A stretch of DNA of 64,000 bases from Lentimicrobium sp. (lineage in GTDB: Bacteria > Bacteroidota > Bacteroidia > Bacteroidales > Lentimicrobiaceae). Location: the NCBI GenBank assembly GCA_019429275.1, contig JAHYJC010000019.1:6081-70080 (forward strand), written 5' to 3'. Of the stretch, positions 5,246 to 64,000 are shown one piece after another (the first letter of the stretch is position 1; each line of letters begins with the position of its first letter). Both the position numbers and the translations under genes were made by a program. Under the pieces are notes generated by a model that saw only the letters and a program-made list of their open reading frames with translations, was not told the origin of the DNA and made no database searches.

Positions 5246-5253
5246 TACATTTG
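5246..5253 (+). promoter_or_regulatory. -7 promoter element (TACATTTG)
   Basis: TAnnTTTG match upstream of 5336. Confidence 0.5.
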
Positions 5254-5335
5254 TAAATCTCATTGTTGGAAGTCGAAAAATTATAAAATTAAACACTTAA
5301 AGAAAAAAGTTAATCAGTTAAAATAAGACAATCTG

Positions 5336-6418: not shown

Positions 6419-6444
6419 GAAAACTCCATATTTTAAATTCCCTT

Positions 6445-6478
6445 AGCGGGACAAGTTAAAAATCTTGTCCCGCTTTTT
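6445..6478 (+). terminator. rho-independent terminator
   Basis: AGCGGGACAAG (6445-6455) / CTTGTCCCGCT (6464-6474), an 11-bp stem followed by a T run. Confidence 0.85.
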
Positions 6479-6539
6479 ATTTTGATAAATTTTTTGATTA
6501 CCAGGTGCATTTTAAAAAGAAAACTTAAGCTTATTTTAC

Positions 6540-6547
6540 TACCTTTG
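6540..6547 (+). promoter_or_regulatory. -7 promoter element (TACCTTTG) of the oxidoreductase gene
   Basis: TAnnTTTG match 28 bp upstream of the ATG at 6576, just after the upstream terminator. Confidence 0.55.
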
Positions 6548-6575
6548 ATATTACCACAATATAATTCCACGAAAG

Positions 6576-48354: not shown

Positions 48355-49113
48355 TTATTTTTCAGTTTTTTTTCTTCTTAATGAGTCTCCTTTTAGGTCA
48401 AACCGGTGTGCATTACCTGCCAATCTGTCCATTATTGCATCGGCAATTGTCGATTCTCCGATATACTGATGCCAGTTACTAACCGGTAATTGTGATGAAA
48501 TCAATGTTGACTTCTTACCATAGCGATCTTCCAAGATTTGAAGCAAGGCGAGCCTTGTAATTTTATCCATTGGATGTAATCCGAAGTCGTCAAGAATAAG
48601 GAGGTGGGTTTTTTCTAATTGATTGAGCATCTTTATGTAAGTGCCATCAAGTTTTGAAAGTGATATTTTCTCCAGAAAGCGATTCATCCCCAGATAGAGT
48701 GTCTTATACCCCATTGAGCAAGCTTGTCGACCAATAGCACAGGCGAGATAGCTTTTACCGCAGCCGGTAGCACCTGTTATCAGTACGTTTTCACTTCTAT
48801 CAATAAATCCGCAATCGGCAATAGAAAGTAAACTTTCCGGAGTCAGATTCCGGGCGGTATTACAATAAACCTGTTCCAACACTGCATTGTAGCGAAGTTT
48901 GCTGTGTTTGAGGTATAGCTGTGTTTTAAGGTTCACCCGATGTTGTGCCTCTGCTTCCGAAAGCCTGGCAATAAAAGGATGGATAGAAGGTTGCTCCTGC
49001 ACCGGGAGTGAGATTACGGCCTGATAAGCATCGGCCATTCCGTGTAGTCTTAATTGACTGAGTTGATCCAATGTGATTTGATGGTTCATGTTGTTTGGTT
49101 TTAGAGTGATCAT
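48355..49113 (-). CDS. istB: IS21 helper ATPase IstB
   Basis: Walker A GATGCGKS, Walker B LLILDDFG, LEDRY, ADAIMDRL, LKGDSLR. Confidence 0.97.
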   Translation of the reverse strand: MITLKPNNMNHQITLDQLSQLRLHGMADAYQAVISLPVQEQPSIHPFIARLSEAEAQHRVNLKTQLYLKHSKLRYNAVLEQVYCNTARNLTPESLLSIADCGFIDRSENVLITGATGCGKSYLACAIGRQACSMGYKTLYLGMNRFLEKISLSKLDGTYIKMLNQLEKTHLLILDDFGLHPMDKITRLALLQILEDRYGKKSTLISSQLPVSNWHQYIGESTIADAIMDRLAGNAHRFDLKGDSLRRKKTEK

Positions 49114-50672
49114 TTATAAGCTTGAGGTCCACGTATGTTTTCATGAGTAAAAAGATCCACAGACGGCGACTGTGAGTCATCAGGTTGTTTGTCTAATCCT
49201 TTTATCAGGATGTTGTTTATCATTCTGTAATTGACACGTGAAGCCGGAATGGCTCGTTTGCAGGCGTTTTCAAAGCGTTCCGCGCCATACTGTTCTGCTA
49301 AACGGATCAAACCAAGGCAAGCCCTGTAGGCTTGCTCGATAAAAGATCTTGATTCCAGTATCCGCCTGGTAATTTCAACTGCATTTTCACCTATTGCTTT
49401 CGCCTTGTTTAAAAAATAGTCTGCATCCCAGCCTTTGGCTTCAAGATAGTTCTGGTGCTGCTCCGGCATGTGTTCTTTCAGCGTTGTATAATCATGCTTT
49501 CTATAATTACGAGTATGACTAGCAATCCTTTGTAATCCCATAAAAACTTCAACAACATCACTATTGTAGACCAGTTTTACTTTTTTGCCAATGTGCTGGT
49601 AGGGGACGCTATATTGATGATAATCCTCACCAAGTATGACATGATAGTTCTTCTGTACCTTAGCCATGGCGGTATGTTTGATAACGAACGGATCAGCAGG
49701 AAGAGCATTTAATAATGGAAGTTCGTCCTGTACAAAACGGTCAGTGCGACTATATGGCCGTTTCTGAAAAGGTGTACGATTGTGCTTGTTCAGGAAGATT
49801 AAGATCCTTTGATTTAATTCCGCCAGACTGTAAAAAGTATCATTACGTATAGACGCATAGATACGCAGATAAGAAATGTGAACCATGTTCTCAACGGTGG
49901 GCTTATCTTTTGGTTTGCCTACCCTGGTTGCAGATAAGCTTGTATTGTAGTGCAGAGACCATTGCAGGCAAAGCTCGCTGAATACCGGTTCATACCGGCT
50001 GCTCTTTTGAACATACTGCTTCATGTTGTCACTCAGGGCGTTTTCAGGCACTCCGCCAAAGTAACTCATACATCGACCCAGAGCGGCAAACAGATGCTCC
50101 TGCGAAGCACTGCGGAGGGCCTCAACGTATGTGTAACCACTATAGGGAAGCACGCACACAAGGACCGGACAGGAAATCACCTCTCCAGAGGTTGTATCAG
50201 CATAATACAGAGGTTTGCCGGCAAAATCAATCTGTACCCTTTCTCCGGCCTTATGCTCAAAGTGCATCGTGGCTATGTTTGTACGGAGGTGGTCTTTGGT
50301 ATGTTCGCAAAATTGCACATACCCATATCCCAAAGGAACTTCTTCTCTGTATTCTTGCCAGAGCTTTTGTCGGGTGACACCGGGTCGCGTTAACTCACGC
50401 TGATAATAATCCAGCCTGGTGCTCAAATACTCGTAACGAGAATCGGGCAGGGAAAGCGCTGTGCCAGGGTAAAACAACTTCGCCAGTTCTGCATCCGGCT
50501 TGCCAGATAGCTCATTTAGAGGCAGCGAAACTTGTAGTATCTTGGCAACATAAGCATCAATTGTATGACGTCCACAGTGCAGTTCACGGGATATCTCCCG
50601 CTTGGAACTACCCTTGGACATAAGTTGAATTATGCGTCGAATTTGTAACATCGTAATTGATTTATTGGACAT
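49110..50672 (-). CDS. istA: IS21 transposase IstA
   Basis: N-terminal HTH, QIDFAG, SDNMK, KDKPTVEN (DDE), YSVPYQ. Confidence 0.97.
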   Translation of the reverse strand: MSNKSITMLQIRRIIQLMSKGSSKREISRELHCGRHTIDAYVAKILQVSLPLNELSGKPDAELAKLFYPGTALSLPDSRYEYLSTRLDYYQRELTRPGVTRQKLWQEYREEVPLGYGYVQFCEHTKDHLRTNIATMHFEHKAGERVQIDFAGKPLYYADTTSGEVISCPVLVCVLPYSGYTYVEALRSASQEHLFAALGRCMSYFGGVPENALSDNMKQYVQKSSRYEPVFSELCLQWSLHYNTSLSATRVGKPKDKPTVENMVHISYLRIYASIRNDTFYSLAELNQRILIFLNKHNRTPFQKRPYSRTDRFVQDELPLLNALPADPFVIKHTAMAKVQKNYHVILGEDYHQYSVPYQHIGKKVKLVYNSDVVEVFMGLQRIASHTRNYRKHDYTTLKEHMPEQHQNYLEAKGWDADYFLNKAKAIGENAVEITRRILESRSFIEQAYRACLGLIRLAEQYGAERFENACKRAIPASRVNYRMINNILIKGLDKQPDDSQSPSVDLFTHENIRGPQAYK

Positions 50673-50724: not shown

Positions 50725-50800
50725 AGTGGCGCCGTTTGGTGTGAAATCACTGGCGCTATTTGCTCCGAATTTACTGGCGCTGTTTGCTCCGTAATAGTCA
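50725..50800. repeat. IS21 terminal inverted repeat (istA side) with three internal binding repeats
   Basis: TGGCGC-centred units at 50727, 50751 and 50775 (period 24). Confidence 0.9.
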
Positions 50801-51242
50801 GGCAACGGTATTTGTCGGAAAACCACCATTGTGGGGGCCTGCCGGATACAATAATGTTCAATATTATTACCTGCCCGATTTAGAGTCATATTATGATGTT
50901 AACAACTCCAGGTTTATCTATTATGAAGGAGGCACCTGGGTTCACCGGAAATATCTGCCCAGGCAATACCGGAGCTATGATCTTTACAGTGGCTACAAGG
51001 TTGTTATGCACGATTACAGGGGAAACTCGCCCTATGCTCATTTTAAAGAACATAAAAGCAAGTATGCAAGAGGCTATAAAGGCCAGGAGCAAAAAACCAT
51101 TGGCAACCGGCCTGATCAACGGAAACAGGGTTTAAAAAATGCAAAGCAGAATCATCCCGGCCAAAAGGTTTCAAAAATGAACCAGGGTAAAATTAAGGGG
51201 CACAACGGCAAAGGTGGCGGAGGCAAAGGCAGAAAAAAATAG
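50801..51242 (+). pseudogene. 5'-truncated secreted hypothetical protein; start and signal peptide replaced by the IS end
   Basis: The frame continues from the IS boundary as ATVFVGKPPLWGPAGYNNVQYYYLPDLESYYDV, resembling the mature N-terminus of a Bacteroidota family; no native start or signal peptide outside the IS; K/G-rich tail. Confidence 0.65.
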
Positions 51243-51362
51243 CCCGGACGTTGCTTTGCTTTATCAGGAATTATTGCTGTATTATCCCTCTTAATCAGGT
51301 GGCCGATACTCAACACCGGCTTTACTTTGAAATGCATTACAAAAAAATCAGGGTGCATTCAA

Positions 51363-51430
51363 ATGTGTGAAATATATAAATTTCTCAACGAATTATATAA
51401 CATCAAAAGGCTTGATTGTGCCGAAATTTG
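51363..51430 (+). promoter_or_regulatory. regulon site A: tandem box promoter
   Basis: ATGTGT-GAAATATATAA(51369)-N10-GAATTATATAA(51390)-N22-GAAATTTG(51423). Confidence 0.8.
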
Positions 51431-51463
51431 TATAAAATTATTTCACAACCTAAAACAAGAAAC

Positions 51464-51796
51464 ATGAAAAAAATGGCATTTGGATTGGTTACAATTATGC
51501 TGATGGTATTGTTTGCTCCGCTTCAATCTGAAGCAAAAATAAAAGACAAACTACCCTCATTGAAGAAAGAAAAAACTGAGATTTCGGTCGAGGCCCAGAC
51601 CATGGTAAACCGACTGGAAGAAATCAAAGCAATGGATCTTTCAAAAATGAACTCATCAGAAAAGAAAGAATTGCGTGCTGAAGTAAAGATGATAAAAAGC
51701 GATCTTCAGGCACAACAGGTAAACAGCAGCGGTGGAGTTTATATTTCTGTCGGAGCAGCTATTTTGATTGTATTGTTGCTGATCCTCCTTTTGTAA
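51464..51796 (+). CDS. conserved Bacteroidota hypothetical protein (signal peptide, coiled coil, C-terminal TM)
   Basis: MKKMAFG.. signal; RLEEIKAMDLSKMNSSEKKELRAEVK; GGVYISVGAAILIVLLLILLL. Confidence 0.8.
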   Translation: MKKMAFGLVTIMLMVLFAPLQSEAKIKDKLPSLKKEKTEISVEAQTMVNRLEEIKAMDLSKMNSSEKKELRAEVKMIKSDLQAQQVNSSGGVYISVGAAILIVLLLILLL

Positions 51797-51872
51797 TCAG
51801 GGGCATTCATAAAACCTGAAAATTCCTGGGGCATCAAAGCCTGAAGCTTTCAAACTTAAAAAAAATATAGAA

Positions 51873-52025
51873 ATGGGAAACTTACTTTACATCATAGCTG
51901 TCGTCCTGATCATTGCCTGGCTTATCGGATTGATTGGATTTCATGCAGGAGGAATTATTCACGTATTGCTGGTAATAGCAATCATTGCTGTTATTCTCAG
52001 ACTTATACAGGGAAAAAGGATTTGA
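51873..52025 (+). CDS. lmo0937 family small membrane protein (50 aa)
   Basis: Missing from the ORF track; hand translation MGNLLYIIAVVLIIAWLIGLIGFHAGGIIHVLLVIAIIAVILRLIQGKRI. Confidence 0.88.
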   Translation: MGNLLYIIAVVLIIAWLIGLIGFHAGGIIHVLLVIAIIAVILRLIQGKRI

Positions 52026-52224
52026 GAATATTAGATTTTACCTCAGATTTGCTTCTGTCGTAAAACAAGTACTTCCCTTTTAGAACCTTGTACCAATACT
52101 GTGAAGAAATACTAAAGCAAGACTTTTATCGACTATCAGCAAAACATAAATTACCAGATTTGAATTGAGTTTAATTGGATTGGCAGTTCCATTTTTCTTC
52201 TTGTTCTTATAGCTTTAGTATCTT

Positions 52225-52257
52225 AAAACCTCCGCTTGCTGACGGGGGTTTTTTTAT
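52225..52257 (+). terminator. rho-independent terminator
   Basis: AAAACCTCCG-cttgctga-CGGGGGTTTT followed by a T run. Confidence 0.75.
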
Positions 52258-52284
52258 TTCCTGAAAATAAATACTACAGTAAAT

Positions 52285-52352
52285 ATGTGTGAATGATGTA
52301 ACTTATGGTAATATTTATGTAACACTCTCCGGATGCATATATTTTATCTTTG
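52285..52352 (+). promoter_or_regulatory. regulon site B: tandem box promoter
   Basis: ATGTGT-GAATGATGTAA(52291)-N10-TATTTATGTAA(52312)-N22-TATCTTTG(52345). Confidence 0.85.
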
Positions 52353-52375
52353 AACAGAACCTAAAAATCAAAATT

Positions 52376-52561
52376 ATGCCACTTCTTACCATTTTAATTG
52401 TGCTGATTGTCGCCGGTGTTTTACTTTGGCTGGTAAATTCATTTATCCCCATGGACCGGAAAATAAAATCGATCCTGAATATCGTGGTGGTAATCATTCT
52501 CATCATCTGGCTGCTGAAGGCATTCGGAATTTTATCCTCTTTAGGCAACATAACTTTTTAA
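52376..52561 (+). CDS. Thivi_2564 family small membrane protein (61 aa)
   Basis: MPLLTILIVLIVAGVLLWLVNSFIPMDRKIKSILNIVVV; start moved to the ATG downstream of the -7 box. Confidence 0.82.
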   Translation: MPLLTILIVLIVAGVLLWLVNSFIPMDRKIKSILNIVVVIILIIWLLKAFGILSSLGNITF

Positions 52562-52676
52562 ACAGGTCAGCAAAAATATTCTGCTGACACATCCGTGGTT
52601 TTCCCGGGTTGCCAGGAAATTATTGGAAATTACTTTTTCGAAATTTACATTTACCTATACCTAACACCCTGAAATA

Positions 52677-52871
52677 ATGAATATTAAAAGAATTTTCGGG
52701 TCTATACTTACCATTCTTGGTATTGTTGGCCTTATTTATGCAGCCGTTTTATTTGCAGGCAATTCAGGGGGCACATCAGGGGTTAAATCCCTGATAATTT
52801 ATGCCGTACTTGGCCTGATATTCTTTATTTCCGGAATCGGACTTATCCGCTCTACCAAAGATGAATCATAG
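52677..52871 (+). CDS. small two-TM membrane protein (64 aa)
   Basis: KRIFGSILTILGIVGLIY...LGLIFFISGIGLIRSTKDE; A-rich translation initiation region. Confidence 0.78.
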   Translation: MNIKRIFGSILTILGIVGLIYAAVLFAGNSGGTSGVKSLIIYAVLGLIFFISGIGLIRSTKDES

Positions 52872-52898
52872 CTAAACCCGGTCAACAAACCTTTTAAG

Positions 52899-52938
52899 AA
52901 GTTGCATCAAGCCACATTTACCCGGTTCGATGCAACTT
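52899..52938. terminator. stem-loop between convergent genes
   Basis: AAGTTGCATC / GATGCAACTT 10-bp stem with a 20-nt loop, T run on the plus side. Confidence 0.5.
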
Positions 52939-52993
52939 TTGCTTTTGGTACAAAGTGCTTTTGAGAGCCGCAAAAATGAACCTGTAAATCATA

Positions 52994-53995
52994 TCATAAG
53001 GTAATGGAATCATTCAGATTCCCCGGTTTTGGTATTTCCGGAATTTTCTGCGGTTCAATTTCAATCTTCGCTTTTACAATTTGCACTGCCCAGGCATTGG
53101 GCACTATTTTCTTGCCGTGGGTGATGGCATATACCTTGGTAAATTCAGCCCCGAAATAAAGAATAATGGCTGAATAGTAAACCCATACAAGAATCAGGAT
53201 TATTGAGCCGGTGGCACCGTACCACGAAGCAATAACGGAACGGCTGAGATAAGCGCCTATGCCAAACTTACCTATCATAAAAAGAAAGGTTGTGAAGGAT
53301 GCACCTATCAGGCAATCTTTCAATACAACCTTACCATCGGGCAGGGTTTTGAAAATGACCGTAAACAGCAGGGTTATGATGATAAACACAATCAGAATAT
53401 TCAGGAAATAAAATAAATATAACGTGTCTTTCGGAAAAAATTCTGCAAGCTGTTTGCTCAGCACATCCATCAGTGAGTTCACAATTAAACCTACCAACAA
53501 CAAAAATCCCACAGAACCGATCATTGAGAAAGACATCAGGCGGTTTTTCAGAAATTTAACGATTCCACGCTTTGGCTTTGCCTTGAGACCCCATATGTAA
53601 TTGATTGAATCCTGGATTTCGGCAAAAACTCCTGAAGCTCCGACCAGTAAAAATCCCACACCCAGCACAGTTGCAAAAGTGCTGCTGTGCGACAATTTTA
53701 CATTCTTTATAATGTCCTGTATCTGAATTGCGGCATTGCTGCCAACCAGCCCGTTTATCTGGCCAAAAATTTCGCCGCGCACAGCCTCTTCTCCAAAAAA
53801 GAATCCACTCAGGCTAATGATGATGATGAGCAGCGGCGGCAGCGAAAAAATGGTGTAATAGGAAAGGGCTGCACCCAGTTTCATTCCATTGTCGTAAATA
53901 AATTCATTAAATGTCTCCTTGAGCAGATACCAGATTTTACCAAGTGATTTTTTGAATTTTTCAATTGACGGTATGGAAATTTGCATAAGTTTCAT
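52994..53995 (-). CDS. YihY/virulence factor BrkB family membrane protein
   Basis: GAALSYYTIFSLPPLL, GASGVFAEIQDSINYIW, FKTLPD, YGATGSIILILVWVYYSAIILYFGAE. Confidence 0.93.
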   Translation of the reverse strand: MKLMQISIPSIEKFKKSLGKIWYLLKETFNEFIYDNGMKLGAALSYYTIFSLPPLLIIIISLSGFFFGEEAVRGEIFGQINGLVGSNAAIQIQDIIKNVKLSHSSTFATVLGVGFLLVGASGVFAEIQDSINYIWGLKAKPKRGIVKFLKNRLMSFSMIGSVGFLLLVGLIVNSLMDVLSKQLAEFFPKDTLYLFYFLNILIVFIIITLLFTVIFKTLPDGKVVLKDCLIGASFTTFLFMIGKFGIGAYLSRSVIASWYGATGSIILILVWVYYSAIILYFGAEFTKVYAITHGKKIVPNAWAVQIVKAKIEIEPQKIPEIPKPGNLNDSITL

Positions 53996-53997
53996 GG

Positions 53998-55830
53998 TTA
54001 CTGAAATAAGGTGGTTGTGGGTTTGCCGATTTCAAAATCCCTGATATTAAAATCTTCTGTTTCATAGGAGTTGAATTTAATGATATTGTTCCCTTTGCCC
54101 GGGATAACAGGATAATAAGAAATGGATACCTGAAAAGTGTTGATTATCAAGTTTATATTTTTTATGAGCACACCCAGCCCGAATTGAGAATAAATACGGC
54201 TGCCTGAAAAACCTGTTTCAGTATCGCCCAGCACACCCAAAGAGCAGATAAAGTAGGGACCAAAGTAGAAGCCAATGAAATTCCAGGGGCTGTATGCCTG
54301 CGTTTGCAATGTCAGCAACAACCTGCTGTTGCCCGACAACACCTGACTGCTGAAGCCGGGCAGGCCCACATTATTATTCAGCGTAAGACTGTCGGTAGCA
54401 TAACGGTTCAGCCCAACGGTAAGTTGAGGCTTCACAAATTGCCGGAATTTCCATTTTCCAACCTCCTTCAGGCCGGTGAAGTAAATAAAGCCTGCCGAAA
54501 AGATTCCCTGTTCAATTTTTGAATTGTGAATAAAAGTGCCGAAATCAAAGTTTGCACTCAGGTAACCAAATGAGAAATAATTGCCAAAAGAAGCCTGTGC
54601 AGCAGTGTAGAACCGGCCCGTACTGTTCCGTTTCTGGTAACCACCTGTCAGGCTGTAAACATTCCCAACAGGTACATCTTCGGTAAGCCCAAATTTAAAC
54701 ACATATTTATCCTGAAAATATTTTCTTCTTGAAACGCCAATACTGGCCAGGTAAAAATCTTCATCGTGGTATAAATACTCCGGATCCGCCGATTCTTCAG
54801 GCTTTTCGGGATAGCGAATACGCGTGTAGCGGATGGCAGTAATGAAATTTGAGGTACGGCTGTTCTCCGAATTTCCTTTGAATAACTGTATGGCGCTGCC
54901 TGCCCAGTAATCCTGGGCATTAAATTTATACCGCTCAACACGAACCAGTGTATCATTAAATCGCTGAAAGATTTTCTGAGCCTGCTGTGAAATATTTACA
55001 CCTGCTGCCCACTTTGCATAGGGTGAGAAAAACGGACGGTCAATGTCAAAACTCTTTCTGAAATTACCGAACTCATCAGTGCCATAGTACAATTTTGAAC
55101 TTATAAAACTATTCATGATGTTGGGCACAGAATAGCTTGTTTTAAAATCATGTCCACCGGTTGAGAGATGCCGCGTCAATCCATTCCTAAACTCATGTCC
55201 CAGGCCTGCGAAATTTTTTTCAGTAATTTTAATTCCAACACGGGTATTTGTTACATCAAATTCAGGAATGATACTCCATGTATCCAGTTCCCTGATAAAA
55301 ATATCTACAGAATCGGAATTTTCAGATGTGGCTTTGATAAAAAAAGCTACATCGGTTACATAACCCCTGCTGCGCACCAGCCGTTCCGATTCTTTAACCA
55401 GCAATGAATCAAATGCCTGGTTTTTACGAAAAAGCAAAAGATTGCGGATGGTGGCCGGTTGCGTTTTAATGTGCAGTTTGTTGCCGGCCCTTGAAGTAAA
55501 GCTGGGATAAGATTTAATGGTGTCGGCAATTGAATTTCCGAAAGGATCGAGTGTTTCGATGTGAATTTGCCTGATGATTTTACCCTCAAACGTATCGTAA
55601 GGTTTTTGTACCGGGACTATATGTGGTTTCTTATTTACATCATCTGCCACGGGTTTAAAGAACAGCCGGTACATGAACCTTGTAAACCTGCTGCGCTCTG
55701 CATAATCTTCAATATTCCCGTAAAGAAGCGTAGAATCTTTTTTTGCAGGTGTTTGCTGGGCATAGGTATAATCACTCGTTAGAATTTGAGCAAAACACAG
55801 CATAAAAGTTATTTTGAACCACATCTGCAT
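53998..55830 (-). CDS. Omp85/TamA-like outer-membrane protein (POTRA + beta-barrel)
   Basis: Signal peptide; POTRA-like TIRNLLLF..FDSLLVKESERLVR..DVAF..VDIFIRELDTWS; amphipathic strands; ends LFQ. Confidence 0.7.
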   Translation of the reverse strand: MQMWFKITFMLCFAQILTSDYTYAQQTPAKKDSTLLYGNIEDYAERSRFTRFMYRLFFKPVADDVNKKPHIVPVQKPYDTFEGKIIRQIHIETLDPFGNSIADTIKSYPSFTSRAGNKLHIKTQPATIRNLLLFRKNQAFDSLLVKESERLVRSRGYVTDVAFFIKATSENSDSVDIFIRELDTWSIIPEFDVTNTRVGIKITEKNFAGLGHEFRNGLTRHLSTGGHDFKTSYSVPNIMNSFISSKLYYGTDEFGNFRKSFDIDRPFFSPYAKWAAGVNISQQAQKIFQRFNDTLVRVERYKFNAQDYWAGSAIQLFKGNSENSRTSNFITAIRYTRIRYPEKPEESADPEYLYHDEDFYLASIGVSRRKYFQDKYVFKFGLTEDVPVGNVYSLTGGYQKRNSTGRFYTAAQASFGNYFSFGYLSANFDFGTFIHNSKIEQGIFSAGFIYFTGLKEVGKWKFRQFVKPQLTVGLNRYATDSLTLNNNVGLPGFSSQVLSGNSRLLLTLQTQAYSPWNFIGFYFGPYFICSLGVLGDTETGFSGSRIYSQFGLGVLIKNINLIINTFQVSISYYPVIPGKGNNIIKFNSYETEDFNIRDFEIGKPTTTLFQ

Positions 55831-55873
55831 TTGTCAAAATTAAAAATTTTAAACCTGACATTTTCAGGAATGG

Positions 55874-56836
55874 CTATTTCGGTTGATCCTGTTCTTTTTG
55901 TTCGGCGGCTTCCTGTTCTGCTGCCTCAATCATTTTTAATTCATCGGCTGCAGCTTTCTTTTTGAACATTCCCTTCAACAATAAACTATGCTGGAAAGCT
56001 TCAATGGTTGAATTTAATCCTTCGGTAGTTTTATTGAGATTATAAATAGTGCTGTTTATGTTTCCGGCTATGATGGTATCATAAATCAATCTGCCAAGGG
56101 TGCCTTTGCCTTCATTAATTTCGATCACACTTCTCTCAACTTGCTTTGTAATGCCTTCTGAATTATCTGCAGTAACTCTCAGACTTGCTAAAATATCGGT
56201 TAAATTTTGCCTCGATGCCTCCATGGTTTCATTCAATCGGGATGAACTTTCTTTAAAGTTCTGAATGGTCTGGTTAATATCTTCAGCAATGGTTGAATCC
56301 TGAATTAACCTTCCAAGTGTTCCTTTGCCTGAGTTTACATTTGTCATCACTTCGGCAAGTTCCTTTGTTATTACTTCAACACTACCTGCGGTTACCTGAA
56401 GACTGGCAATAATGGCATCCGTTTCAACAGGTTCGGTCGAATCAAGGTGTTGGCCATCCTTTGCCAAAGGAGCATCTGTAGTTCCCTGTGTAATTATCAA
56501 GAGCCGGTCGCCTATCAGCCCTTCTGAACCTATGGCCACTTTACTGTCTGATTTAATAAATTGCTGAACCTCTTTTCGAACCAGCATATCAACCCTTACC
56601 GTTGAGTCGTTGATGATTGAAATTACATCAACTGTCCCTACATTAATGCCTGAGAAACGGATATTGTTCCCCACCTGCAATCCGCTTACATTGTAAAAAT
56701 TTGTAGTAAGTTTAAAAACAGGGTTGAACAGATTTTTTTGCTTGCCGATGATAAATATGGCCATCATAAAAAGCGCCAGCCCTCCGACAACAAAAAGACC
56801 TAAGCGGACTTTAAATTTTTGTGTGTGCGTATCCAT
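55874..56836 (-). CDS. mlaD: MlaD/MCE family protein with an extended helical region
   Basis: KVRLGLFV TM, NVSGLQVGNNIRFSGINVGTV, IGSEGLIGD; duplicated GKGTLGRLI. Confidence 0.92.
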   Translation of the reverse strand: MDTHTQKFKVRLGLFVVGGLALFMMAIFIIGKQKNLFNPVFKLTTNFYNVSGLQVGNNIRFSGINVGTVDVISIINDSTVRVDMLVRKEVQQFIKSDSKVAIGSEGLIGDRLLIITQGTTDAPLAKDGQHLDSTEPVETDAIIASLQVTAGSVEVITKELAEVMTNVNSGKGTLGRLIQDSTIAEDINQTIQNFKESSSRLNETMEASRQNLTDILASLRVTADNSEGITKQVERSVIEINEGKGTLGRLIYDTIIAGNINSTIYNLNKTTEGLNSTIEAFQHSLLLKGMFKKKAAADELKMIEAAEQEAAEQKEQDQPK

Positions 56837-56894
56837 TTTGTTATTGTTTTACACTAATTCGTATTTCAGTTTCATTGCCGGGATGTTCCGGAAT

Positions 56895-57677
56895 TTATAA
56901 AAAGAAGGCCTGAATGGCAGGATCATCCGATTTTTCAAAATCCTCAACAGTTCCTTCTTTATATACGGACCCTGAATCGAGCATAATGATTCGGTTTGCT
57001 GTTTTCAGTGCGCATTTAATATCATGTGTAATGATGATGGATGAGGTTTTATACTTCTCCTGAACATCATTGATGAGTTCGCTTATTTCGTTGGAAGTAA
57101 CCGGGTCGAGTCCGGTTGTTGGCTCATCGTAAAGCATAACCAGAGGGTCCACAACAATAGTACGGGCCAGACTAATACGCTTGCGCATGCCACCCGATAG
57201 TTCGGAGGGCATTTTGTTCTGCGCATCGGGCAAACCCACATTTTCAAGCACCTCATTTATTTTGTTATCCCTCTCGTTTTTCGAGAGATTCTTTTTCAGT
57301 CTGACTAACGGAAATTCCAGATTCTGTTTCACGGTCATTGAGTCGTACAAAGCACCGCTCTGAAAAAGGAAACCGACCTTCTGTCTGAGTTCGCTCATTT
57401 CTTTTCTGCTCAGCGTTTTCACATTTTTCCCAAATACGTCAATGGTGCCGCCTTCAAAATTCAATAAGCCAACAATGCACTTTATCAGCACCGATTTACC
57501 GGTACCTGATTTGCCCAGCACAACCAGGTTTTCGCCATTGTAAAGGTTTAATGAAGCATCTTCTAAAACCTTTATTTTACCGAATGACTTTTGCAGATTG
57601 TTTATCCTGATAACCGGTTCTGCTACCTTTTCAGCAGATTGAATCTCATTTGGAGCGAATTTAAGTTCAGTGTTCAT
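56895..57677 (-). CDS. mlaF: MlaF-type ABC ATPase
   Basis: GKSGTGKS, FLFQSGALYDSMTV, LSGGMRKR, LYDEPTTGLDP, ITHD. Confidence 0.93.
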   Translation of the reverse strand: MNTELKFAPNEIQSAEKVAEPVIRINNLQKSFGKIKVLEDASLNLYNGENLVVLGKSGTGKSVLIKCIVGLLNFEGGTIDVFGKNVKTLSRKEMSELRQKVGFLFQSGALYDSMTVKQNLEFPLVRLKKNLSKNERDNKINEVLENVGLPDAQNKMPSELSGGMRKRISLARTIVVDPLVMLYDEPTTGLDPVTSNEISELINDVQEKYKTSSIIITHDIKCALKTANRIIMLDSGSVYKEGTVEDFEKSDDPAIQAFFL

Positions 57678-58540
57678 AATACCAGCATATCAGTAATTTG
57701 TACGGCAATCATATCCACCACCAGCACCAGAAGCGATGCCAGCACAACCGCAGAATTTGCAGCCACCCCAACACTTTCGGTTCCACGTCCGGCATGATAA
57801 CCTTTGTAGGTTCCCACAAAGCCAATAACTGCTCCAAAGAAAAAGGTTTTAATTAGTGCCGGAAAAAAATCCATAAAATCTACTACTTTGAATGCCTGTG
57901 CAAAAAAGAGCGTAAGTGGTACATCCCCTTTGATATTTGCCCCTGCCCAACTTGCCAGAATACCAAAAGCATCGGCATACAAAACAAGCAACGGTATCAT
58001 AAGTGTTGCCGCCAGCACCCTGGTTACTACCAGAAATCTTATTGGATTTGTTGAAGACACTTCCATGGCTTCAATCTGCTCGGTCACTTTCATGGAGCCC
58101 AGTTCGGCACCCATGCCCGATCCGATTTTTCCGGCGCAGATAAGGGCGGTAATTACCGGCCCCATTTCCCTGATAAGCGATACAGCAACCATTCCTGGCA
58201 GCATGGATACTGCTCCGAAATCAACCAGCACCGGGCGCGATTGTATGGTGAGCACCAGCCCCATAATGGCTCCGGTAACTGTTATGAGCGGTAAAGTTTT
58301 GTATCCGATTTGAAAACACTGGCGAAAGAATTCCTTAAATTCAAAATCGCGCGAGAATAATTCTCTGGTAACCTGCGATATAAACATAAATACATCCGCA
58401 ACATCGGTCAGAAAGTTGCCGGCTGCCTCGGTTTTTGAAAGGGTGTTTTCGCTAAGTTTGCTTATAGAACGCACTGTTACGTCCCGGAGTTTCGGAATAA
58501 CCTTGACAACCGGGATAAACTTTTTCGTATTTATTTTCAT
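57674..58540 (-). CDS. mlaE: MlaE family ABC permease
   Basis: IREMGPVITAL, GKIGSGMGAELGSMKVTEQIEAME, VGVAANSAVV; ATGA overlap with mlaF. Confidence 0.94.
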   Translation of the reverse strand: MKINTKKFIPVVKVIPKLRDVTVRSISKLSENTLSKTEAAGNFLTDVADVFMFISQVTRELFSRDFEFKEFFRQCFQIGYKTLPLITVTGAIMGLVLTIQSRPVLVDFGAVSMLPGMVAVSLIREMGPVITALICAGKIGSGMGAELGSMKVTEQIEAMEVSSTNPIRFLVVTRVLAATLMIPLLVLYADAFGILASWAGANIKGDVPLTLFFAQAFKVVDFMDFFPALIKTFFFGAVIGFVGTYKGYHAGRGTESVGVAANSAVVLASLLVLVVDMIAVQITDMLVL

Positions 58541-58730
58541 TATGCCCGGGTTTTATTATGTTGACAATTCACTTTCAGTAAGATTGCTGTTTGGTTAATC
58601 AACGGTAGTCAGTCCGTTTTTCATGGTTCTAAATATTCCTTTGCCGAAACAGCCATTCAATGAAAGGCAAAAGAACATGACGCACCAGGCAGAAACTGCC
58701 TGTGAATTTGTATGCCAGGATTATATGCCG

Positions 58731-58798
58731 CAAATTTACCGGCCATTTGCGGCGAATGCATTACATAACTATTTCTATTAGTTACATGATTCACACAT
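58731..58798 (-). promoter_or_regulatory. regulon site C: tandem box promoter of the mla operon
   Basis: Minus strand ATGTGT-GAATCATGTAA(58792)-N10-TAGTTATGTAA(58771)-N22-TAAATTTG(58738). Confidence 0.85.
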
Positions 58799-58859
58799 CT
58801 CAATTGCTGGTTTATAAAATGGACAGCCTTTTTTACATTAAACCCTGCCCCGATTTACA

Positions 58860-58927
58860 ATGTGGGAATCATGTAACTCTGTTGCAGAATTGTGTAACGC
58901 TATTCGGTAGCCTTTAACAGACCTTTG
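58860..58927 (+). promoter_or_regulatory. regulon site D: tandem box promoter of the ytxH operon
   Basis: ATGTGG-GAATCATGTAA(58866)-N10-GAATTGTGTAA(58887)-N22-GACCTTTG(58920). Confidence 0.85.
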
Positions 58928-58963
58928 TCTTTCTATATATTGTTCACTTTTAAATTCAAAACA

Positions 58964-59242
58964 ATGAGCACAGGAAAAGTAGTTTTAGGTGTAGTGGCAG
59001 GTGTTGCACTTGGCGCAGTAGCAGGCATCTTATTTGCCCCCGACAAAGGGAAATCTACCAGAAAGAAAATCTCGAAAAAAGGAGAAGATCTTACCAATGA
59101 TTTGGAAAAGAAGTTCAACAAATTCGTTGATAAATATTCTAAAAAGTTTGACAAGCTAAAGGATGAGGCCAATGCCATGGCTGATGAAATCAACTTCGAA
59201 GCAAAAGAAACCGAAGAGCAGGTAAAATCTGAAAAGCGCTAA
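58964..59242 (+). CDS. YtxH domain-containing protein
   Basis: MSTGKVVLGVVAGVALGAVAGILFAPDKGKSTRKKI followed by a coiled coil; ATG start preferred. Confidence 0.92.
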   Translation: MSTGKVVLGVVAGVALGAVAGILFAPDKGKSTRKKISKKGEDLTNDLEKKFNKFVDKYSKKFDKLKDEANAMADEINFEAKETEEQVKSEKR

Positions 59243-59357
59243 CTCAGGCAAATTTTAAATCTACCATCAGCAAAGCAAGTACAATTCCTTATGGCTGGTG
59301 GCCCGGTTGGATAGTACCTTCTGAGTTAATGAAAGTTATTAAAACAAAAATCAGTAT

Positions 59358-59699
59358 ATGGAAACTCCGGTAAGGCAGTTAGAGTTATTGTTTGAAAAAG
59401 CAAAGGCTTATGGAACAACCACCTATGAGCTTTCGAAACTTAAAGCGGTGGAAACAACTGCAACCATTACAACATCTCTGGTGTCGCGCATGGTCGTGGT
59501 CGCTTTTGCCGCTATATTTTTAATTATCCTGAGCACAGGAGTGTCGTTTTGGCTTGGAGAACTACTTGGAAAGATATACTATGGCTTTTTTGCGGTAGCC
59601 GCATTTTACCTGGTAATCAGCCTTATTTTACACTTTTACCTCCATAAGTGGATTAAAAAACCATTAAGTGATTCCATTGTTTCTCAGGCACTTCAATAA
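59358..59699 (+). CDS. phage-holin-family-like (YqjE/DUF1469-like) membrane protein
   Basis: YELSKLKAVE N-terminus, two TMs, WLGELLGKIYYGFFAVAAFYL. Confidence 0.75.
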   Translation: METPVRQLELLFEKAKAYGTTTYELSKLKAVETTATITTSLVSRMVVVAFAAIFLIILSTGVSFWLGELLGKIYYGFFAVAAFYLVISLILHFYLHKWIKKPLSDSIVSQALQ

Positions 59700-59707
59700 G
59701 ACTTATC

Positions 59708-60112
59708 ATGGAAAATATATCGACTGCAGCCGGACTCAGAGATGCGATTGTTTATCTTGAAGCCGAACAGGCCAGAGAGGGTGCTGAATTGAATGAACAG
59801 TTCAGGATTGTTTATGATAGCCTGAAACCCATTAACCTTATTAAAGGCGCTTTTGAGGAAATAACCGGCTCAAAGGATATTCAGGAAAACCTGTTGACGA
59901 GTTCGGTGGGACTTGCCACAGGATATCTGTCAAAATTATTGGTTCAGGGTATAATGAAAAGACCGTTGAATAAATTTTTCGGCACAGCCGTAATGTTTGG
60001 TACCAAAAACATAGTCTCACAAAACCCGGAAGCCATAAAGTTTTTAGGTAAGATATTTTTTAACCTTTTCAGAGGCAAAGCAGATTCTGCCAAAAATAAA
60101 CCAGATGAATAA
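59708..60112 (+). CDS. hypothetical protein, third gene of the YtxH trio
   Basis: LRDAIVYLEAEQ coiled coil, LKPINLIK, amphipathic or hydrophobic C-terminal half. Confidence 0.75.
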   Translation: MENISTAAGLRDAIVYLEAEQAREGAELNEQFRIVYDSLKPINLIKGAFEEITGSKDIQENLLTSSVGLATGYLSKLLVQGIMKRPLNKFFGTAVMFGTKNIVSQNPEAIKFLGKIFFNLFRGKADSAKNKPDE

Positions 60113-60128
60113 ATAATCCGGAATTCAG

Positions 60129-61238
60129 ATGGATACAATTCTGAAGTTGCCGTTCTATGCAAAAGCATCCATCCTTTTGATAGGATTGTATGTTCTCATT
60201 GCCATGCTCAGTATTGCCCAGGGAATTATTGTTCCATTGGTTTTTTCCGTTATTCTGGCCATTTTGCTTCATCCGGTGGTCAGTTTTTTTGTCAGATCAG
60301 GAATAAATAAAGTTATCGCCATTATTCTTACCCTCATGCTAACCATACTTGTGATGGCAGCCTTTGGCTTATTGATTTTTTCACAGGCAAGCAAGTTCAG
60401 CGAAAGCTGGCCACTGATGGTTGATAAATTCACTCTAATGCTTAACGATAGCATTGGTGGAATTTCAGGTTATTTCGACATAAGCCCTCAAAGCATTCAT
60501 GAATGGATAGAAAAAACCAGGGTTGAAATACTCAACAACAGCGGTGCAGCCATAGGGCAAACCCTTATAAGTGTTGGCAGCAGCCTGGTTGCTTTATTTC
60601 TGATTCCGGTTTATATTTTTTTAATCCTCTTCTACCAACCTCTGCTCATTGATTTTATTCACAAGCTATTTGGTGTCGGCAACAAAAGCAAGGTTACAGA
60701 AATTATTACCCAAACAAAAAATGTTGTTCAGCAATACCTCGTTGGGCTGGTTATAGAAACAATCATCATAGCAGTGCTTGAAATTACTGCTTTGCTGATC
60801 CTCGGTATTGAATATGCCATACTCCTTGGCATTATTGGCGCTTTACTCAATCTTATTCCATACATAGGCGGCGTGGTGGCTGTTGCCATGCCAATGATGG
60901 TTGCTTTGGCTACCAAGGATTCAGGCTGGTATGCCTTGTACGTGCTTGCCATCTATTATTTCATTCAAATTATCGACAACAATTATATAGTTCCGATGAT
61001 TGTTGCCTCAAAAGTGAAAATCAATGCACTTTTTTCAATCATAGCTGTAATAGCTGGCAATGCCCTCTGGGGCGTTTCCGGAATGTTCCTTTCCATACCT
61101 CTGCTGGCTGTTGTAAAGTTAATTTTCGACAACATTGAACCCATGAAACCCTGGGGCTTTCTGTTGGGCGACACCATGCCATCCATTCTGAAAATTGATC
61201 CGATTCTGAAAACCATAAAAAAACTGTCAAAAAAATAA
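60129..61238 (+). CDS. AI-2E (PerM) family transporter
   Basis: IIVPLVFSVILAILLHPVV, LNLIPYIG, QIIDNNYIVPMIV, LWGVSGMFLSIPL. Confidence 0.93.
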   Translation: MDTILKLPFYAKASILLIGLYVLIAMLSIAQGIIVPLVFSVILAILLHPVVSFFVRSGINKVIAIILTLMLTILVMAAFGLLIFSQASKFSESWPLMVDKFTLMLNDSIGGISGYFDISPQSIHEWIEKTRVEILNNSGAAIGQTLISVGSSLVALFLIPVYIFLILFYQPLLIDFIHKLFGVGNKSKVTEIITQTKNVVQQYLVGLVIETIIIAVLEITALLILGIEYAILLGIIGALLNLIPYIGGVVAVAMPMMVALATKDSGWYALYVLAIYYFIQIIDNNYIVPMIVASKVKINALFSIIAVIAGNALWGVSGMFLSIPLLAVVKLIFDNIEPMKPWGFLLGDTMPSILKIDPILKTIKKLSKK

Positions 61239-61312
61239 ACACGGGTTTAATGGCAACTACTCCTGCGACGGGGAATACTCGAACCGGATTGAGTTTTAAG
61301 AACCGCTGTTTA

Positions 61313-61380
61313 ATGTATGAATTATATAAATCTAATTGAGAAAAGTATAATGCATCCATCTGCCTGCTGAAGTAATTTTA
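61313..61380 (+). promoter_or_regulatory. regulon site E: tandem box promoter (degenerate second box)
   Basis: ATGTAT-GAATTATATAA(61319)-N10-GAAAAGTATAA(61340)-N22-TAATTTTA(61373). Confidence 0.65.
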
Positions 61381-61471
61381 TTGCGCAAATACCGGAGTTT
61401 CATCACCTGAATTTTTCTGCAGAGTCCATTTACGGAATTGAAATATTATCCGGATCAAACACAAACAGGCT

Positions 61472-62953
61472 ATGAAAGTTCTCTTGGTCTATCCTCAATA
61501 CCCTGATTCATTCTGGAGCTTCAAACATGCATTGCGTTTTATATCGAAGAAGGCAGCAGTTCCACCGCTTGGCTTAATAACAGTATCTGCCATGCTGCCA
61601 GCAACCTGGCAGAAAAAACTGGTGGATATGAACGTTTCAAAACTCAAAACTTCTGACATCGAATGGGCTGATCTGGTTTTTATCAGTGCCATGTATATTC
61701 AGAAAGAGTCGGTTGACTATGTCATACGCGAATGTAAAAAATCGGGAGCCCGGATGGTAGCCGGTGGCCCACTGTTTACCCAGGAATACCAGAATTATCC
61801 GCAGATTGACTATTTTGTGCTGAACGAGGCTGAAATTACATTGCCCCTTTTCCTGAAAGACATAGAGAATGGTAAAACTCCTGAAAATGTATATAAAACC
61901 GATGAGTTTGCTGACATTACACAAAGTCCGGTACCGGATTTTCATTTATTGTCGATGAAGGATTATGTATTTATGGATGTTCAGGTCTCGCGCGGGTGCC
62001 CTTATTCATGCGAGTTTTGCGAAATTACTACATTACTGGGCCACAAGGTAAGGATGAAAAGCACCCGGCAGGTATTGAATGAACTTGAAGCCCTTTACAA
62101 GCTTAACTGGCGCGGATCGGTTTCTATTGTTGATGATAATTTCATCGGCAACAAACAGCAGATCAAGCTCGATTTGCTTCCCGGCCTCATACAATGGATG
62201 AATTTACACAAACACCCTTTTGTGTTTAGCTCCCAGACATCAATAAATCTGGCCGATGATGATGAACTGTTGTCGATGATGACCGATGCGGGTTTCGGTT
62301 CAACTTTTATCGGCATAGAAACACCTTCCGCAGCATCACTGAATGAATGCAATAAGGTGCAGAATAAAAACCGTGATATGCTTCACAGCGTGTTAAAGAT
62401 TCAACGTGCCGGAATGTTGGTTTCGGGAGGCTTTATCGTCGGCTTCGACAGCGATTCGCCGGCTGTGTTTCAGCAGCAGATCGATTTCATTCAGCAAAGC
62501 GGAATTGTATCGGCCATGGTGGGGCTGCTGAATGCCCCGAAAAATACCAGGCTTTACGACAGGCTTGGCAAAGAAAACAGGCTGGTTCTGGAGTCGTCGG
62601 GCAACAATACAGATTTTACCATGAATTTTGTGCCAAGGATGAATGTCCAGGAATTGATTACAGGCTATAAAAAAATCATACACGACATTTATACAACCCG
62701 GCCCTACTACAAAAGAGTGCGAAAGTTACTGGTCAACTATAAACGCAGAGATAAAAAAACGGCAAGTATCAGTTATGCCAATATGAAGGCACTCATCAGA
62801 TCATTTCTTGTTATCGGTATTTTAAAACGTGGCCGAAGCGATTTCTGGAAATTTATGATCTGGACACTCTTTATCAAACCTGGCTCAATGGCCGATGCAA
62901 TCGAATACTCAATCTATGGATATCACTACAGGACCGTTTACGGCCTGCGATAG
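61472..62953 (+). CDS. B12-binding radical SAM protein (class B methyltransferase-like, DUF4070 C-terminus)
   Basis: YPDSFWSF..PPLGL, VAGGP (cobalamin domain), RGCPYSCEFC (CX3CX2C), VDDNFIGN, FIGIETP, GFIVGFDSD. Confidence 0.92.
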   Translation: MKVLLVYPQYPDSFWSFKHALRFISKKAAVPPLGLITVSAMLPATWQKKLVDMNVSKLKTSDIEWADLVFISAMYIQKESVDYVIRECKKSGARMVAGGPLFTQEYQNYPQIDYFVLNEAEITLPLFLKDIENGKTPENVYKTDEFADITQSPVPDFHLLSMKDYVFMDVQVSRGCPYSCEFCEITTLLGHKVRMKSTRQVLNELEALYKLNWRGSVSIVDDNFIGNKQQIKLDLLPGLIQWMNLHKHPFVFSSQTSINLADDDELLSMMTDAGFGSTFIGIETPSAASLNECNKVQNKNRDMLHSVLKIQRAGMLVSGGFIVGFDSDSPAVFQQQIDFIQQSGIVSAMVGLLNAPKNTRLYDRLGKENRLVLESSGNNTDFTMNFVPRMNVQELITGYKKIIHDIYTTRPYYKRVRKLLVNYKRRDKKTASISYANMKALIRSFLVIGILKRGRSDFWKFMIWTLFIKPGSMADAIEYSIYGYHYRTVYGLR

Positions 62954-62996
62954 TATGGGGAAATCGTCAGAAATCACATATATTTTACCCTCAAAA

Positions 62997-63064
62997 AAGT
63001 GGGAATTATGTAAAATTTCTGAAAAGTTGTGTAACAGAACCTTTCGTAAAGCTTATCTACTTTG
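62997..63064 (+). promoter_or_regulatory. regulon site F: tandem box promoter of the regulator operon
   Basis: AAGTGG-GAATTATGTAA(63003)-N10-AAGTTGTGTAA(63024)-N22-CTACTTTG(63057). Confidence 0.82.
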
Positions 63065-63094: not shown

Positions 63095-63307
63095 ATGAAA
63101 ACACTTGCTCTAATCTTACTGGTTATTGGTCTGGGATTGACCATCTTCACCACCTTTACCTACTTTACAAAGGAAAAAATTGTTGACATCGGTGAACTTG
63201 AAATCACTGCAAAAAAACAGAATAATCTTAACTGGTCTCCTTTGATCGGTATCGGAGTTATTGCCGTTGGTGGAATTCTTTACTGGCAGTCAACCAAAAA
63301 ACAATAA
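63095..63307 (+). CDS. small two-TM membrane protein (70 aa)
   Basis: TM - TKEKIVDIGELEIT - WSPLIGIGVIAVGGIL TM. Confidence 0.82.
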   Translation: MKTLALILLVIGLGLTIFTTFTYFTKEKIVDIGELEITAKKQNNLNWSPLIGIGVIAVGGILYWQSTKKQ

Positions 63308-63310: not shown

Positions 63311-63877
63311 TTGAGACTTAGCATTAAATACATGGTAAGTGCCCGCTGTAAAATGCTGGTTAAGGAAGAGTTAAAGAACCTCGGGCTTCATTACGTCTTC
63401 GTCGACCTTGGGGCAGTTGAAGTGATGGAGAATCTCACTTTAGCCCAGCGCGAGCAATTTGGCAAGGCCTTGCAAAGGTCAGGATTGGAGCTAATGGACG
63501 ACAGAAAAGCCATACTGATTGAGAAAATTAAAAACGTAATTGTTGAGCTGGTTCATCACTCAGATGAAATACCCAAAGAAAACTTTTCAGATTACCTGAG
63601 TAAAAAACTGGACTACGATTATACCTATCTTGCAAATCTTTTTTCTGAAGTTCTGGGCACAACCATTGAAAAGTTTTACATAAACCACAAAATTGAGCGG
63701 GTAAAGGAACTCATCTTTTATGATGAACTAAACATTTCCGAAATCGCCTGGAAATTAAATTACAGCAGTGTGGCGCATTTATCCAATCAGTTTAAAAAAG
63801 TGACCGGCCTCTCACCCTCGCATTTTAAAAAGTTAAAAATCAAAAGCCGTGTTCCCATTGAAGAGATTGGGAATTAG
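63311..63877 (+). CDS. AraC family regulator with a short HMA-like N-terminal domain
   Basis: TTG start; YMVSARCKMLVKEEL N-domain; YDYTYLANLFS and KIERVKEL..LNISEIAWKLNYSSVAHLSNQFKKVTGLSPSHF double HTH. Confidence 0.93.
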   Translation: MRLSIKYMVSARCKMLVKEELKNLGLHYVFVDLGAVEVMENLTLAQREQFGKALQRSGLELMDDRKAILIEKIKNVIVELVHHSDEIPKENFSDYLSKKLDYDYTYLANLFSEVLGTTIEKFYINHKIERVKELIFYDELNISEIAWKLNYSSVAHLSNQFKKVTGLSPSHFKKLKIKSRVPIEEIGN

Positions 63878-63917: not shown

Positions 63918-64000
63918 ATGAAATCAAAAAAAAAACCAGAATCAAAATATGACAGAAGCCTCAGTGAAAGTCCTGACCCTCTGATTACAAACACTGGCAA
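63918..64000 (+). CDS. possible start of a downstream gene (partial)
   Basis: ATG preceded by an A-rich stretch; MKSKKKPESKYDRSLSESPDPLITNTG open to the window end. Confidence 0.3.
   Translation, partial: MKSKKKPESKYDRSLSESPDPLITNTG

Follow-up and report, generated by a model that had tools for sequence, protein, structure and literature searches.

What controls transcription of the accessory gene module near the end of this Lentimicrobium sp. DNA (contig JAHYJC010000019.1, positions 6,081 to 70,080 of the forward strand; these 64,000 nucleotides are the window), and do its transcription units answer to a common regulator? A preliminary description of the sequence had pointed to six sites in the module that share one tandem-box layout, and at all six the sequence reads as claimed. 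The sites, termed modules A to F (Table 1), align without gaps, with the consensus (A)TGTGn-GAATnATGTAA, N10, nAnTTrTGTAA, N22, nAnnTTTG. Each consists of a hexamer, an 11-bp box 1, a box 2, a spacer and an 8-bp -7-like box. From the start of box 1 to that of box 2 the distance is exactly 21 bp in six of six sites, and the spacer between box 2 and the -7 box is exactly 22 bp, and unconserved, in all of them. Box 1 reads GAAnnATrTAA across the set. The -7-like box ends in TTTG in five modules and in TTTA in module E; four of the boxes (A, D, E and F) depart from TAnnTTTG, as had been described. Modules C and D stand back to back, 57 bp apart. We assign a probability of roughly 0.7 to the reading that the six sites are sigma-A promoters in need of an activator and belong to a single regulon, under a small AraC-family protein that is encoded in the same module.

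The specificity of the layout was assessed with two matrices. A 42-column matrix from 12 seed sites of the source genome (assembly of 4.19 Mb), used with a threshold of 17 bits, gave 22 sites above the threshold in the genome; the maximum in the shuffled genome was 12.8 bits. So as to avoid circularity, a 70-column matrix was then built from 281 sites, all of other genomes. It scored the six window sites at 34-57 bits, the next best window position being -8.5, and the best score in 100 first-order Markov windows was 11.7 bits. No scoring site was found with this matrix in the first 48 kb of the window, where the motif had not been noticed before either. The preliminary description had proposed a scan of this kind, with randomly scattered matches as the outcome that would count against a regulon. 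The foreign-only matrix recovered exactly the same 22 genome sites, all at 28.9 bits or more and none between 10 and 28.9, and at 22 of 22 a same-strand open reading frame (ORF) begins 10-233 bp after the -7 box. A chance origin of the six sites is excluded, and the motif is almost certainly a real, conserved promoter element.

Sixteen of the 22 sites lie outside the window. One is just past its end (C24:72931), and the other 15 are on contigs C1, C6, C26, C43, C54, C81 and C97. The proposal that the regulon covers most units of the module is borne out in that all six transcription units of the module are preceded by a co-directed motif, but the regulon is not confined to the module.

The anatomy of the promoter was resolved with a logo of 303 non-identical sites, taken from the source genome and 100 related loci. 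It reads aAtgTGTGAATnATGTAAc, N10, AaTTrTGTAAca, N20, nAcCTTTG, and the 21-bp period of the boxes holds in it as in the window. The distal site is 17 bp long (TGTGnGAATnATGTAA; in module A, ATGTGT followed by GAAATATATAA). The ATGTGT-like hexamer, previously presented as an element of its own, is the upstream half of this site. The conserved blocks of the distal site, TGTG and ATGTAA, are centred about 10 bp apart, which fits the two helix-turn-helix motifs of one AraC-type domain. The proximal repeat retains a GAATnATGTAA-like half without TGTG and is therefore the weaker copy.

In the -7 region, the logo shows A in 85%, TT in 98%, T in 77% and G in 59% of the sites at a fixed distance. The search matrix did not include this region, and the spacing is therefore virtually constant across the phylum. 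The logo has no conserved -33 TTTG element between box 2 and the -7 box; its place is taken by box 2. Mapping in Flavobacterium psychrophilum put the -7 box at -12 to -5 (PMC9723704). If the same placement applies, box 2 would lie at about -45 to -35 and the distal site at about -72 to -56. The preliminary description had placed box 2 where the -33 element would be expected, and this agrees with a box that ends 22 bp before the -7 box, which on such a placement would be near -35. Transcription start sites were inferred from the position of the -7 box, and that of module A is predicted near 51435. A scan against Rfam gave no fitting family for the promoter element, which is therefore not a known RNA motif.

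The association of the motif with the AraC-family gene was analysed in 80 loci (1.17 Mb in total), fetched via the AraC protein at 66-82% identity and spanning Bacteroidales, Chitinophagaceae, Flavobacterium, Sphingobacteriia, Cyclobacteriaceae, Saprospiraceae and Catalinimonas. They hold 254 motif copies, of which 233 are co-oriented with the AraC gene, and the motif is present in 77 of the 80. In 27 of the 80 loci it starts 113-125 bp before the AraC start codon; a peak at the AraC stop codon is formed by 10 loci, and a further peak lies behind the kinase-receiver pair. Among 131 AraC copies, 75 have the motif immediately next to the gene, either ahead of the start or at the stop. The autoregulation that had been suggested from site F thus corresponds to a conserved feature: a conserved motif before the AraC gene or operon would place the regulator in its own regulon, which implies positive autoregulation.

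Searches that started from the pattern led to the same gene. With a strict pattern, matches were found in 17 of 41 relatives, and two or more matches were present in 9 of the 10 genomes whose orthologue reaches 58% identity, vs 1 of the 31 that lack such an orthologue (Fisher p = 3e-7). In a 251-genome sample of the phylum, the pattern was found 100 bp to 4 kb from an AraC homologue in five genomes (G074, G082, G126, G189 and G193). The reversed-pattern control gave no match among the 41 relatives or in the 251-genome sample. At the scale of the phylum the strict IUPAC pattern under-detects: many genomes with an orthologue of 60-73% identity give no exact match, and matrix scans of the AraC neighbourhoods of such orthologues show drifted copies beside the gene, such as TGTGATATATGTAAC. 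Owing to this under-detection, the phylum-level presence/absence table was not used as a test.

All ORFs of the 100 loci were clustered to find common families. The most frequent were AraC (100 loci), the kinase (58), the receiver (58) and a cupin (35). AraC is the sole DNA-binding family common to these loci, which, together with the co-occurrence among the 41 relatives, upholds the AraC-linked regulon proposed earlier. Where enough sequence was available (59 loci), the kinase follows the AraC gene directly in 48. Of the 11 loci that lack the kinase, nine nevertheless carry the motif next to AraC, and the link between motif and AraC therefore does not hinge on the kinase. On the Runella rosea plasmid NZ_CP030852.1 (L105, 10025-12561), an AraC orthologue of 61% identity is divergent from an ice-binding family gene; two motif copies lie between the two genes, and there is no kinase or receiver nearby. 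This minimal cassette is found in a cultured strain and might be used as a compact test system.

Branching in the AraC tree departs from taxonomy; loci labelled as motif-bearing are dispersed over the tree, which does not separate binders from non-binders. Two arrangements are common in the tree, AraC-kinase-receiver and a tandem of AraC-a and AraC-b, the latter being found in many other genomes as two paralogues with the motif between them. A GATA variant of the box goes with a single position, namely the site found at the stop codon in one clade of paralogues. In an analysis of covariation between box variants and AraC residues, the GATA variant was not accompanied by a clean change in the recognition helices. 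A search for sequencing runs gave none for the window and no RNA run for a complete-genome relative; 22 runs were listed for a peat-mire relative, all presumably of DNA, and four of them yielded short contigs of low depth, scattered over the locus. Several short contigs from peat metagenomes match only the ~40-bp box core of this relative (L041:6053-6094) and diverge on both sides; one of them runs into a different spacer that ends CACCTTTGT. This suggests that many co-resident peat organisms have promoters with the same boxes.

The candidate regulator is encoded immediately after the first gene of unit F. Its homologues in a library of 1.84 billion proteins mostly have seven more N-terminal residues than the ATG-started version, which favours translation from the TTG at 63311 and a product of 188 aa. 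In an AlphaFold2 model (pLDDT 86), computed from an alignment of 40 sequences, seven helices in residues 57-172 form a canonical AraC/XylS DNA-binding domain with two helix-turn-helix motifs. The best structural matches in Foldseek were the DNA-binding domains of AraT, YesN, MarA and AdpA (target-normalised TM 0.70-0.82). The N-terminal domain, of ~55-60 aa, is modelled as (beta)-alpha-beta-beta-alpha and would be ferredoxin/HMA-like once an extra N-terminal strand is counted. Its sequence runs LRLSIKY-MVSARCK..., with a MVSxRC motif that retains one Cys only. The domain has no Pfam match and includes no cupin or periplasmic-binding-protein-like AraC-type domain, a feature that is not family-defining. 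The Pfam search likewise gave no Response_reg match for the regulator.

A second AraC paralogue was identified on contig C43 (reverse strand, 2112-7494 along that strand). It has 186 aa, is 61% identical and carries the same recognition-helix segments. One motif copy there is followed by a 968-aa CheB-CheR-PAS protein, a PAS protein and the paralogue; a further copy starts 47 bp after the stop codon of the paralogue, before an M48 peptidase. The CheB-CheR-PAS protein bears STNEELQ repeats. This paralogue, the genome- and phylum-wide extent of the motif and the conserved hybrid kinase with its receiver-only protein go beyond the preliminary description.

Several observations weigh against an activator-dependent sigma-A regulon under the AraC protein. 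The 80 loci were picked via the AraC gene, so that their enrichment for the motif is partly by construction and only the pattern-first tests are independent. The congener G022 has at least seven motif copies and no close AraC orthologue in its assembly: its best AraC homologue is ~38% identical by direct tblastn of the contig, or 45% over residues 43-180 in another search. The G022 island (L101, G022:C130, 5408-5700) includes an N-gap flanked by a duplicated, motif-bearing segment, and the AraC gene may have been lost in that gap. Several genomes with an orthologue of 54-65% identity (loci L093, L096-L098, L100 and L106) have no motif within 10 kb of it. The module is accessory, adjoining an IS21 element and being patchy among congeners. 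Co-inheritance of the island inflates co-occurrence, as the patchiness and the AraC tree indicate, and co-occurrence by itself does not single out the AraC protein among the genes of the island. Lastly, the first T of TAnnTTTG is conserved in just 22% of the 303 sites. Weak promoters in need of an activator would account for this, but so would a variant sigma factor.

These observations bear first on whether the boxes are bound by some other factor, a LytTR-type response regulator or one encoded elsewhere, with the AraC gene being just a member of the regulon. LytTR regulators typically use direct repeats ~21 bp apart, the sites of G022 persist without the AraC orthologue, and genes of an island travel together, so that co-occurrence is no proof. 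However, a LytTR regulator was found in only 6 of the 100 loci, and no other DNA-binding family is common there. The position of the motif at the AraC start or stop is retained in kinase-less loci and on the Runella plasmid, and the bipartite 17-bp distal site suits a domain with two helix-turn-helix motifs. We regard another factor as unlikely; the AraC protein of 63311-63877 probably binds the boxes, as judged from sequence comparison.

On the preferred reading of an AraC-dependent regulon, the AraC protein and its C43 paralogue would bind the two direct repeats, which lie two helical turns apart. The full 17-bp distal site would be the strong one; the weak proximal one would end near -35, in the place of the absent -33 element, and its occupation would bring in RNA polymerase in a class II-like manner, as at araI1-I2. 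The same protein could instead act at these sites as a repressor or a dual regulator, the tandem sites being an operator that blocks polymerase until a signal arrives. A protein bound to the proximal box would lie over the -35 region and could shut out polymerase, and some AraC-family members do repress, AraC itself by looping. On the other hand, the -7 box and the predicted start are always clear of the boxes, and the lack of a -33 element and the variable first position of the -7 box suggest promoters too weak to work unaided. The distance to the -7 box is rigid over the 303 sites, and such rigidity is needed for contact with polymerase, not for steric repression. Because of the rigid spacing, the missing -33 element and the degenerate first base, activation is preferred over repression. 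The promoter architecture makes activation the probable mode of action, and repression or dual regulation improbable.

A further alternative is that TGTAAC-N22-nAcCTTTG is the -35/-10-type signature of an alternative sigma factor, with the upstream repeat as an accessory. TGTAAC resembles the -35 element of some extracytoplasmic function (ECF) sigma factors, the -7 box is off TAnnTTTG at its first base, and general-stress cargo is elsewhere usually under sigma control. The 22-bp gap, however, exceeds the 16-17 bp of ECF promoters, and the downstream element retains the A and the TTTG of the sigma-A -7 box. The strongest conservation is in the distal repeat, at -72 to -56, beyond sigma contact, and the families that are common in the 100 loci include neither a sigma nor an anti-sigma factor. 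An alternative sigma factor is thus a very unlikely explanation. That the copies are non-regulatory remnants of a dispersed repeat or mobile element has next to no probability: the module does adjoin an IS21 element and is patchily distributed, but the boxes alone are conserved, whereas neither the spacers (10 and 22 bp) nor the flanks on either side are related from copy to copy, no terminal repeats are present, every copy is intergenic and gene-directed, and the same boxes precede the same gene families in distant orders; this column-wise pattern of conservation effectively refutes the idea.

Table 1. Promoter modules, downstream transcription units and signalling genes in the window. Module scores are those with the foreign-only 70-column matrix.
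Feature	Position	Strand	Elements or products	Score or annotation
Module A	51361-51430	+	ATGTGT; box 1 GAAATATATAA; box 2 GAATTATATAA; -7 box GAAATTTG	42.2 bits
Module B	52283-52352	+	ATGTGT; box 1 GAATGATGTAA; box 2 TATTTATGTAA; -7 box TATCTTTG	56.8 bits
Module C	58800-58731	-	ATGTGT; box 1 GAATCATGTAA; box 2 TAGTTATGTAA; -7 box TAAATTTG at 58738-58731	55.3 bits
Module D	58858-58927	+	ATGTGG; box 1 GAATCATGTAA; box 2 GAATTGTGTAA; -7 box GACCTTTG	52.6 bits
Module E	61311-61380	+	ATGTAT; box 1 GAATTATATAA; box 2 GAAAAGTATAA; -7 box TAATTTTA	33.9 bits (weakest copy)
Module F	62995-63064	+	AAGTGG; box 1 GAATTATGTAA; box 2 AAGTTGTGTAA; -7 box CTACTTTG	46.8 bits
Unit A	51464-51796; 51873-52025	+	110-aa secreted/membrane protein; DUF5670 protein	Pfam (DUF5670)
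Unit B	52376-52561; 52677-52871	+	Two small membrane proteins	
Unit C	58540-57674; 57677-56895; 56836-55874; 55830-53998; 53995-52994	-	MlaE; MlaF; MlaD; 610-aa protein; BrkB/YihY	Pfam (no match for the 610-aa protein)
Unit D	58964-59242; 59358-59699; 59708-60112; 60129-61238	+	YtxH; holin-X-like; 134-aa protein; AI-2E family transporter	Pfam
Unit E	61472-62953	+	B12-binding radical SAM / DUF4070 enzyme	
Unit F	63095-63307 (first gene)	+	70-aa membrane protein, then AraC, hybrid kinase and receiver	
Candidate regulator	63311-63877	+	188 aa, TTG start	Pfam HTH_18 2.4e-16, HTH_AraC 4.3e-08
Hybrid histidine kinase	63918-64000 (start; runs off the window)	+	806 aa	PAS, HisKA, HATPase, REC, HPt-like tail

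The kinase that follows the regulator (Table 1) has a receiver domain of its own. On the contig it is followed by a 144-aa receiver-only protein and then by the motif copy just past the end of the window; neither the kinase nor the receiver-only protein has a DNA-binding domain. The N-terminus of the kinase carries five to six tandem 18-residue units (…ANKELVFQNKEKEKRAAEL…) before the PAS domain; these units and the STNEELQ repeats of the CheB-CheR-PAS protein look like coiled-coil repeat arrays. From the conserved gene order, control of the AraC protein by the kinase and receiver has, in our estimate, about an even chance of being correct; the likely route would be a phosphorelay through the downstream hybrid kinase and the receiver-only protein. 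If the system works as a split response regulator, the HPt-like tail of the kinase would pass phosphate to the receiver-only protein, which would act in trans on the ferredoxin-like N-terminal domain of the AraC protein, so that the weak proximal site would be filled.

In unit A, a strong terminator-like hairpin (52225-52252) ends the unit just before module B. A sigma-70-type promoter scan was uninformative, as is so in Bacteroidota, and this terminator was its sole useful output. The one Rfam hit, a sub-threshold GcvB match (52123-52256, + strand; 22 bits vs a gathering threshold of 42, E = 0.25), overlaps the terminator and is most likely due to chance. The 610-aa protein inside the MlaEFD-BrkB operon (53998-55830, - strand) is without a Pfam match, with relatives in only 2 of the 80 related loci. 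Directly upstream of the module is the IS21-type element, with an IstA-like transposase (49110-50672, - strand) and an IstB-like ATPase (48355-49113, - strand). Between this element and site A lies a 160-aa ORF (50760-51242), also without a Pfam match.

Elsewhere in the genome, the motif precedes genes for CsbD-like proteins, a CheB-like protein, an ice-binding-like protein, an M48 peptidase, OmpA-family and OMP-barrel proteins, a TamB-like protein and DUF4382. Two baeRF family-3 proteins are also encoded behind the motif, one of them followed by an S30AE/HPF-like protein. An operon of KaiC, two KaiB and a PAS protein lies behind a high-scoring copy (C26:3304-6817), and this clock-type ATPase system appears to belong to the regulon. 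In other genomes, the families that recur behind the motif are AraC, CsbD, DUF5670, YtxH, cupin, ice-binding-like proteins, OMP barrels and OmpA, with CsbD, DUF5670 and YtxH recurring in 18-33 loci. Judging by these annotations, the cargo would be small stress proteins and envelope-maintenance proteins, and the regulon looks like a general stress or envelope-protection response. General-stress cargo is in other phyla usually under a sigma factor.

A larger proposal is tentative, and we hold it to be somewhat doubtful: that the system is the master switch of a Bacteroidota general stress/envelope-protection response, consisting of a transcription factor on housekeeping-sigma promoters and a split phosphorelay. 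The KaiBC and CheB/CheR-PAS proteins of the regulon would then supply feedback or timing. We know of no described master regulator of the general stress response in Bacteroidota, and our searches found none. Neither the full-text literature searches nor a transcriptome paper on a flavobacterium yielded a description of motif, regulator or regulon. The mode of action is already known in kind, being class II activation of the AraC/XylS type. What appear to be undescribed are the protein subfamily with a ferredoxin-like N-terminal domain, the separate receiver, the phylum-wide stress-type regulon and the rigid 70-bp promoter design. Promoter design and AraC-type regulator together are probably an undescribed switch for stress and envelope-protection genes across Bacteroidota.

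Bacteroidota are prominent in the microbiomes of soil, water, sediment and hosts, and the present candidate is concrete and cheap to test: a single protein of 188 aa, a 70-bp promoter design whose boxes and spacings are defined, and 22 promoters in this genome as the predicted regulon. As an annotation tool, the promoter signature could flag stress-regulated genes, many of them small and without an assigned function, in hundreds of genomes. The promoter could also provide a naturally tight, portable, activator-dependent element for genetic tools in a phylum that has few. If it is true that the receiver-only protein controls the AraC protein in trans, the signalling architecture would be unusual.

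The closest parallel in promoter layout is with AraC at araI1-I2 and XylS at Pm, where two direct repeats with a 21-bp period comprise a strong distal site and a weaker proximal site that reaches -35. The present promoters would be alike in both respects, as far as binding can be deduced from the boxes, and the systems share a two-helix-turn-helix AraC/XylS domain and a regulator placed in its own circuit. They differ in that the present regulator has a ~60-aa ferredoxin/HMA-like N-terminal domain instead of a cupin/arabinose-binding dimerisation domain, in that the promoters are of the Bacteroidota -7 type with 22 targets rather than a few sugar operons, and in that control is probably by phosphorelay rather than by a small-molecule ligand. 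MarA, SoxS and Rob of Enterobacteria are likewise AraC/XylS-family activators of dispersed stress and envelope genes. They act, however, as monomers at a single degenerate bipartite ~20-bp box in class I or class II positions, variable in position and orientation, whereas here two boxes are fixed in tandem at a fixed distance and the protein has an extra N-terminal domain.

In its cargo, the regulon resembles the stress responses under sigma-B, RpoS and EcfG/PhyR, with CsbD, YtxH, small membrane proteins, HPF-like, OmpA-like and envelope proteins; in the alphaproteobacterial EcfG/PhyR system, histidine kinases also feed in. Unlike in those systems, no sigma or anti-sigma factor is associated with the present regulon, and the master regulator would be a transcription factor on sigma-A promoters. 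By sequence and fold, the closest DNA-binding domains are those of the REC-AraC regulators (YesN, AraT) and the Bacteroides hybrid two-component systems, which are also linked to a histidine kinase. There the receiver is fused to the regulator, whereas here a 144-aa protein of its own, encoded after the kinase, forms the receiver, and the N-terminal domain of the AraC protein differs; the unfused receiver would constitute a split arrangement of that design.

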